A stretch of DNA of 64,000 nt from an uncultured archaeon (lineage in GTDB: Archaea; Asgardarchaeota; Lokiarchaeia; Sigyniarchaeales; SOKP01): assembly GCA_964583985.1 (NCBI GenBank), contig CAZOYD010000001.1, positions 99,532-163,531 on the forward strand. Reading direction: 5' to 3'. Under the pieces are notes generated by a model. The model saw only the letters and a program-made list of their open reading frames with translations, ran no database searches and was not told the origin of the DNA. Within the stretch, counting starts at the first letter, position 1; each line of letters opens with the position of its first letter. A program made the position numbers and the translations under genes. This document shows positions 13,321 to 13,485 of this stretch, one piece after another.

Positions 13321-13485
13321 CGGGCTATGAGGGATTTCCAACGGTTTGAGAGTTTCAAACGTCATATTGAACCCCCGACTTGCCGGTGTCTCAAAACGCA
13401 AGTAATTAAGCGCTAGATAAGAGCCGGACGCGCTACCTGATTGCACTAAAAGCGTGGGGTACGCTTAAATCTGCGCTAATAGCCC
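13321..13485 (-). tRNA. tRNA-Lys(CTT) with three introns (D-loop 13441-13470, anticodon 13388-13417, T-loop ~13335-13365)
   Basis: GGGCTAT/ATAGCCC acceptor; removing three hairpin inserts (30+30+31 nt) leaves a 74-nt cloverleaf. Confidence 0.9.

Follow-up and report, generated by a model that had tools for sequence, protein, structure and literature searches.

Transfer RNA genes with several introns are classically associated with Thermoproteales and other Crenarchaeota (Sugahara 2007, 2008; Fujishima 2010, as cited in PMC4090602 and in a 2026 preprint by Goswami et al., 10.64898/2026.10.13.758758), in which tRNAs with three introns and relaxed splice motifs are well established (PMC4090602). 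They have also been published for the Asgard archaea, the phylum Promethearchaeota: Valentin-Alvarado et al. 2024 (PMC11291895) found introns in 92-95% of Asgard tRNA genes, with several introns in more than half, and Goswami et al. described up to five introns per gene. [quoted passage not shown] An (alpha-beta)2 EndA with the L1 loop had already been reported for Asgard archaea by Kaneta 2018 (PMC5829648).

Here we describe a tRNA-Lys(CUU) gene with three introns. A reading made from the sequence alone had described multi-intron tRNAs with non-canonical intron positions as characteristic of some Thermoproteales, but the host is an Asgard archaeon (Promethearchaeota) outside the Thermoproteales, and the phenomenon is on record for its phylum. 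Since Asgard multi-intron tRNAs are already published, the gene, taken singly, is ordinary for these archaea: it is a clean example of a described phenomenon and not a new kind of gene.

Results

A tRNA-Lys(CUU) gene in four exons

The gene occupies positions 13321-13485 of the window (the whole 64,000-nt stretch of DNA that was analysed), exactly where the sequence-only reading had placed it, and lies on the minus strand. It spans 165 nt, with G1 at 13485 and the discriminator G73 at 13321, begins with GGGCUAU and ends with AUAGCCC followed by the discriminator G, and does not encode CCA. On the basis of ARAGORN analysis of the spliced product and of intronless orthologues, it divides into four exons and three introns, all read on the minus strand: exon 1 (13471-13485; tRNA positions 1-15, comprising the 5' strands of the acceptor and D-stems, A14 and G15), intron 1 (13441-13470; 30 nt, after G15 in the D-loop, site 15/16), exon 2 (13418-13440; positions 16-37, anticodon CUU included), intron 2 (13388-13417; 30 nt, after A37, the canonical site 37/38), exon 3 (13366-13387; positions 38-59), intron 3 (13335-13365; 31 nt, after U59 in the T-loop, site 59/60) and exon 4 (13321-13334; positions 60-73). 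Removal of the three introns in silico left 74 nt that ARAGORN called tRNA-Lys(ctt) with a full cloverleaf, in line with the 74-nt cloverleaf predicted beforehand. The spliced sequence has 60.8% G+C compared to 31.7% genome-wide, and its sole flaw is a mismatch, U27.C43; the whole orthologue group is mismatched (U.C or A.C) at 27:43.

The unspliced gene was not detected by ARAGORN, and the Rfam tRNA model RF00005 missed it at the gathering score and also, on a 1-kb slice, at E<=10; for these tools the expectation that standard scans would overlook it is borne out. No open reading frame of at least 80 aa overlaps the gene. Guide features of the C/D-box or H/ACA-like kind, sought by eye in the three introns, were not seen, and an intron of 30 nt cannot accommodate either type of guide. 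We conclude that 13321-13485 is very probably a functional, single-copy tRNA-Lys(CUU) gene whose three introns would be spliced out by EndA and the RNA ligase RtcB.

Upstream of the gene, a promoter-like element on the same strand (13518-13535) comprises a TATA-like TTAAATAA at -40 to -33 from G1 and a purine-rich AGAAGATTTC just before it. A motif GAAGATTTCTTA(A/T)ATAAT recurs upstream of those orthologues that are not directly behind a tRNA-Thr gene, and the TTAAATAA/AGAAGATTTC element is a candidate promoter. The gene is followed by a T-rich trailer with oligo-T runs (13291-13320, minus strand) that probably serves as transcription stop, judged by its sequence. In most relatives, Lys(CUU) lies 25-40 nt downstream of a tRNA-Thr gene that points the same way. 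The two genes are rearranged in this genome and its nearest relatives, where the Lys gene has a conserved upstream box of its own; in the window they are convergent. The neighbouring tRNA-Thr(UGU) gene (13096-13196, plus strand) has an 18-nt intron inside the anticodon loop (within the anticodon according to ARAGORN) and, in its variable region, an additional hairpin of 10-13 nt (GCGU-GAAA-ACGC).

Splice motifs and folding of the precursor

[quoted passage not shown] All three introns have two bulges around a central helix of this kind, as hBHBh' or in a relaxed HBh' or hBH form, and the central helices named in the sequence-only reading, GCGC/GUGC (4 bp), CUC/GAG (3 bp plus U.U) and UUCA/UGGA (4 bp), are all present. 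In intron 1, H is formed by GCGC (positions 10-13, a D-stem strand) with GUGC (4/4), the bulges are AG^A and AA^U, the inner hairpin has 6 bp and the outer helix is absent, giving a relaxed HBh' motif. The motif of intron 2 has the anticodon stem as outer helix (h 4), a central helix of CUC/GAG plus U.U (3/4), bulges UA^U and AC^A, and an inner hairpin of 5 bp that is offset by a small internal loop. In intron 3 the T-stem (5 bp) serves as outer helix and UUCA (positions 54-57) pairs with UGGA as H (4/4); the 3' bulge is AA^U, the 5' bulge is enlarged to 5 nt, and the inner hairpin has 8 bp and a single bulged C. Of the three motifs in the precursor, two are relaxed.

When the precursor was folded with the three motifs and the acceptor, anticodon and T stems enforced, its energy was -46.4 kcal/mol compared to a minimum free energy of -50.9 kcal/mol, a gap of 4.5 kcal/mol; the mean folding energy of shuffled precursors was -42.1 kcal/mol. 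The minimum free energy structure of the whole precursor lacks the central helices of introns 1 and 3, and that of intron 1 competes with the D-stem.

Splicing enzymes and a proposed maturation path

The sequence-only reading had assumed a promiscuous EndA and proposed that its subunit architecture be determined in the genome, which proved to encode two EndA paralogues, a catalytic alpha (contig C4, 207 aa) and a beta (contig C3, 205 aa). The alpha subunit finds its best match in A. pernix alpha (3P1Z_B, E 1e-36), runs without gaps through the Crenarchaea-specific loop (ISKPR aligned to EKPR), and keeps the loop lysine K44, the Y125/H133/K164 triad, R157 and W183 (A. pernix numbering); the roles of these residues, including RNA recognition by K44, are described in PMC3241643. 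The beta subunit contains both Pfam domains with Tyr->Phe and His->Ser changes at catalytic positions and, lacking the catalytic Tyr and His, would be structural. Sequence comparison thus supports assignment of this EndA to the (alpha-beta)2 type with a broad-specificity L1/CSL loop, and with it the assumption of a promiscuous enzyme. The genome likewise encodes an RtcB-type ligase: its sole rtcB copy lies in the window (55972-57450, plus strand; PF01139, 556.9 bits), convergent with a single gene for Archease, the RtcB cofactor (57454-57873, minus strand; PF01951, 134.7 bits).

With these components, maturation could proceed as follows. Lys(CUU) would be transcribed from its own promoter into a precursor that comprises about 165 nt together with a leader and a trailer. 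Within it, each intron would form a BHB motif with neighbouring exon bases, intron 1 pairing with the D-stem strand 10-13, intron 2 with anticodon-loop bases 32-35 and intron 3 with T-loop bases 54-57. The heterotetrameric (alpha-beta)2 EndA, by means of its broad-specificity loop, would cut in both bulges of each motif, RtcB with Archease would ligate the four exons, and RNase P, RNase Z and the CCA-adding enzyme would complete the 74-nt tRNA. We infer both the splicing and the use of the promoter from the features of the DNA. The same enzymes presumably also serve tRNA-type introns in protein genes, such as that for RNase HII in the window.

Orthologues with zero to three introns

BLAST searches with the gene in 40 relatives, and with an orthologue that lacks introns in 153 genomes of the order (closed genomes of 4.4 and 6.0 Mb in other families among them), yielded about 50 loci; the orthologous Lys(CUU) loci were aligned in a splice-aware manner with the 59/60 placement fixed. 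Many genomes have a 74-nt Lys(CUU) gene without intron (for example L006, L008, L011, L016, L146 and L151-L162), others have the 59/60 intron alone (30-32 nt; L002-L005, L007, L009, L010, L013-L015, L163 and L172-L174), one has two introns (L017), and one has as its only intron an unrelated 28-nt insert at 37/38 (L018). In all aligned orthologues the exon joints fall exactly at the predicted 15/16, 37/38 and 59/60 sites, confirming the positions called from the sequence alone (the last of them given as approximate), and the inserts are either absent at these exact joints or kept with their structure. A compensating change at pair 29:41 in one orthologue fixes the register. Most relatives are free of introns in this gene or have the 59/60 intron only, and the three-intron state is derived.

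The 59/60 introns are particularly informative as a group. In 17 of 17 distinct orthologous versions, H is complete (4/4) and the outer helix h is intact (5/5), with A57-U replaced by G57-C in one subgroup. Among 11 sequences of equal length, 96.6% of cells are paired, compared to 40-64% in slid controls, and none of 500 shuffles reached the observed pairing or covariation score; five of the seven inner-helix pairs are altered on both sides. For the six closest T-loop introns the MAFFT gap fell in the T-stem, and their compensating changes were read directly, outside the formal pair count.

In one genome (G022) a locus on contig C77 (L012:1499-1536) holds the 5' half of tRNA-Lys(CUU), which stops exactly at position 37 and is followed by unrelated sequence for at least 1.5 kb; a search for the 3' half in this 92%-complete genome found none within 2 mismatches. 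The half gene could be a split gene, a gene with a very long intron, or the result of an insertion.

An independent three-intron copy

Metagenomes were scanned for exon 1 and exon 2 separated by 20-50 nt of any sequence. This revealed the same gene on contig SMTZ1_10001268 (L180), where all three introns are present and occupy the same sites. This contig is syntenic with positions 5000-17567 of the window, with 65-77% identity in protein-coding DNA and 85% in the tRNA region. The exons of the two Lys(CUU) genes agree at 70 of 74 positions and the introns at roughly 65-80%, with changes mainly in the hairpin loops; introns 1 and 3 retain their hairpins and central helices, the helix of intron 2 is a perfect 4 bp (CUCU/AGAG) in L180, and the 50 nt upstream are identical at 48 positions. 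The Rfam tRNA model fails to detect the L180 gene as well. A scan of contigs with a 15-nt exon-1 pattern gave, among the matches listed, mostly bacterial chance matches, along with the same gene in 'Promethearchaeota archaeon' MAGs, one of which (L066) is identical to a locus of the same genus (L015). Introns 1 and 2 would have been gained in the branch shared with L180 and then retained.

Retention of the three introns in L180 despite substantial divergence argues against both an assembly accident and recent decay. An artefact or a chance resemblance might be suspected in a draft assembly of 138 contigs with 5.25% estimated contamination, but the same architecture recurs, among the same neighbouring genes, on a metagenome contig that was assembled independently, and orthologues match every exon. 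Chance resemblance is unlikely also because intronless orthologues of 74 nt agree with the predicted product at 70 of 74 positions, with a score of 66.6 bits on RF00005. We therefore give this reading almost no weight and regard it as effectively refuted.

A functional gene is likewise favoured over a decaying pseudogene, that is, a normal tRNA-Lys(CUU) gene that was hit by three insertions and is not matured, with AAG being read by tRNA-Lys(UUU). Two relaxed motifs, the presence of just one intron in the genome's Lys(UUU) gene and the blindness of the standard tRNA models to the locus would all suit such decay, but the exons are intact and have stayed far closer to those of L180 than the neighbouring coding DNA has, length, position, hairpins and exon-pairing helices of all three inserts are retained in L180, the upstream region is conserved, and the genome, which is 100% complete, has no other Lys(CUU) gene. 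Decay is very unlikely on these grounds.

The tRNA set of the genome

The genome (3.8 Mb) yields 21 tRNA genes with ARAGORN and about 23 above the cut-off with Rfam, and the spliced Lys(CUU) sequence has a sole other relative in it, a tRNA-Lys(UUU) gene with one T-loop intron (C1:171541-171644). This tRNA-Lys(UUU) might read AAG by wobble, and the Lys(CUU) gene therefore need not be essential. A candidate for a second Lys(CUU) gene, called 'Lys(ctt)' by ARAGORN on contig C19, was rejected, since its G3:U70 pair and the alternative anticodon loop CUUGCAC identify it as a tRNA-Ala(UGC) gene with a non-canonical intron; G3:U70 is the alanine identity pair. Alanine tRNAs with G3:U70, non-canonical introns and D-loops lacking GG are encoded at C19:42885-42986 (minus strand) and C8:27371-27474 (plus strand), and ARAGORN miscalls them Lys(ctt) and Lys(ttt), respectively. 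In the window, a tRNA-Val(UAC) gene (10718-10820, minus strand) with the anticodon loop CUUACAC and a D-loop insert of about 30 nt is miscalled Ile(gat) by ARAGORN and gives only a partial 20-bit match with Rfam. At C27:19492-19584 (plus strand) ARAGORN calls a tRNA-Sec(UCA), and the organism thus probably uses selenocysteine.

A crude acceptor/T-arm scan, which has false positives, drops genes with interrupted D-loops (Lys(CUU) included) at its filter and is suited to rough length classes only, placed most tRNA-like genes at 95-150 nt, with a handful, including Lys(CUU), at 160 nt or more. Among the latter are tRNA-like genes of 163-176 nt at C105:5352-5515, C24:30269-30431, C27:19975-20150 and C8:56772-56944 (minus-strand scan coordinates), each probably with about three introns as well. 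ARAGORN and the Rfam model miss about half of the tRNA genes in this complete genome, so that annotation pipelines would report Lys(CUU) as missing.

A D-loop intron common to two lysine isoacceptors

Among the Lys(CUU) orthologues of the genomes searched, no other has intron 1, and L180 is the only further Lys(CUU) gene that carries it. When the 153 genomes of the order were searched for the exon 1/exon 2 gap pattern, 10 further genomes from four genera had it, all in tRNA-Lys(UUU) genes with one 15/16 intron (L181-L190), and the metagenome locus L179 is also a tRNA-Lys(UUU) gene with a 15/16 intron. These introns are 29-31 nt long and fall into three sequence types, one of which is clearly homologous to intron 1: the Lys(UUU) introns of G051 and G054 have the same start, end and hairpin stem, and that of G054 is identical to intron 1 at 23 of 30 positions, including all 12 stem bases, its differences being confined to the loop, the spacer and a single base of the 3' helix. 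The geometry of the 15/16 insert is constant in 13 independent genes, with a GCGC 4-bp helix, bulges of the form AG^A and AA^N, and an inner hairpin that shows compensating changes (U-A to C-G).

These data also bear on the idea that only some of the inserts are true introns, the D-loop insert for example being retained as an enlarged D-loop or removed in another way. The missing outer helix of intron 1 and the competition of its central helix with the D-stem would fit this idea, which is countered by the same 15/16 geometry in the 13 genes and by the compensating changes in the hairpin. A D-loop of 39 nt, moreover, would disrupt the tertiary contacts between the D- and T-loops of the tRNA. 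According to the 2026 preprint (10.64898/2026.10.13.758758), a minority of D-arm insertions lack the canonical motif and might not be introns; HBh' motifs of the kind found at 15/16 are nevertheless known substrates of (alpha-beta)2 EndA with a specific loop (PMC4090602; PMC3241643). We consider it highly improbable that the D-loop insert or either of the others is anything but an intron, and treat all three as such.

The Lys(UUU) and Lys(CUU) genes have identical D-arms and different anticodon stems. The occurrence of homologous introns at one and the same site of two isoacceptor genes is suggestive of a transfer between those genes, and we tentatively raise the possibility that the D-loop intron moved between the Lys(UUU) and Lys(CUU) genes, in either direction, rather than arising in place. 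Such a transfer could have occurred by gene conversion, or by reverse splicing into a site that offers the same GCGC helix. The Lys(UUU) gene of this genome does not have the 15/16 intron, and a search of the Lys(CUU) genes in the genomes with 15/16-bearing Lys(UUU) genes found no 15/16 intron in them. Intron 1 may have been born by local duplication: its last 13 nt (13441-13453, minus strand) match exon positions 3-15 (13471-13483) at 10 of 13 positions, a match that is partly forced by the palindromic GCGC helix and is therefore weak, post hoc evidence.

When the three introns were compared with the whole genome by BLAST, only chance matches of 13-15 nt appeared, and thus no evidence of copying within the genome. 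The spreading of introns suggested by the sequence-only reading is not shown by these data, as the three introns of Lys(CUU) have no sequence relatives elsewhere in the genome. A tRNA-type intron does occur in the RNase HII mRNA. The RNase HII insert (28246-28275, minus strand) is 30 nt long and splits the catalytic motif, and its removal restores GLDEAGRGPVLGPM.

Discussion

The tRNA-Lys(CUU) locus combines a series of orthologues with 0, 1, 2 and 3 introns in a genus-level group with a divergent three-intron relative, and thereby offers a compact natural experiment on the gain and retention of introns. If the tentative transfer of the D-loop intron is true, it would be a concrete case of intron movement between isoacceptor genes with an identical D-arm. 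The 15/16 family common to both lysine isoacceptors is a testable lead on how introns arrive, a question that the 2026 census left open.

The closest systems are the Asgard multi-intron tRNAs (PMC11291895; 10.64898/2026.10.13.758758). They resemble Lys(CUU) in their host, in having several short introns at canonical and non-canonical sites, and in their BHB-type boundaries, D-arm introns missed by tools, lineage-specific gains and type of EndA. The published work centres on Atabeyarchaeia, Freyarchaeia and Jordiarchaeia, with about 0.9 insertions per gene in other Asgard families, and in the parts accessible neither the Lys(CUU) gene nor its 0-to-3-intron series is named. The EndA of A. pernix (3P1Z/3AJV; Hirata 2011, PMC3241643) is similar in that its alpha subunit aligns end to end with the one described here, with conserved residues and a catalytically dead paralogue at its side; it differs in that EndA beta here is closer to M. 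jannaschii EndA than to A. pernix beta, and the Asgard enzyme is known from its sequence. The multi-intron tRNAs of Crenarchaeota are alike in having up to three introns with BHB or relaxed BHB motifs, related introns across tRNA genes and a broad-specificity (alpha-beta)2 EndA, whereas Lys(CUU) belongs to a different phylum and to an AT-rich (31.7% G+C), presumably mesophilic genome, and its introns are of a uniform 30-31 nt.
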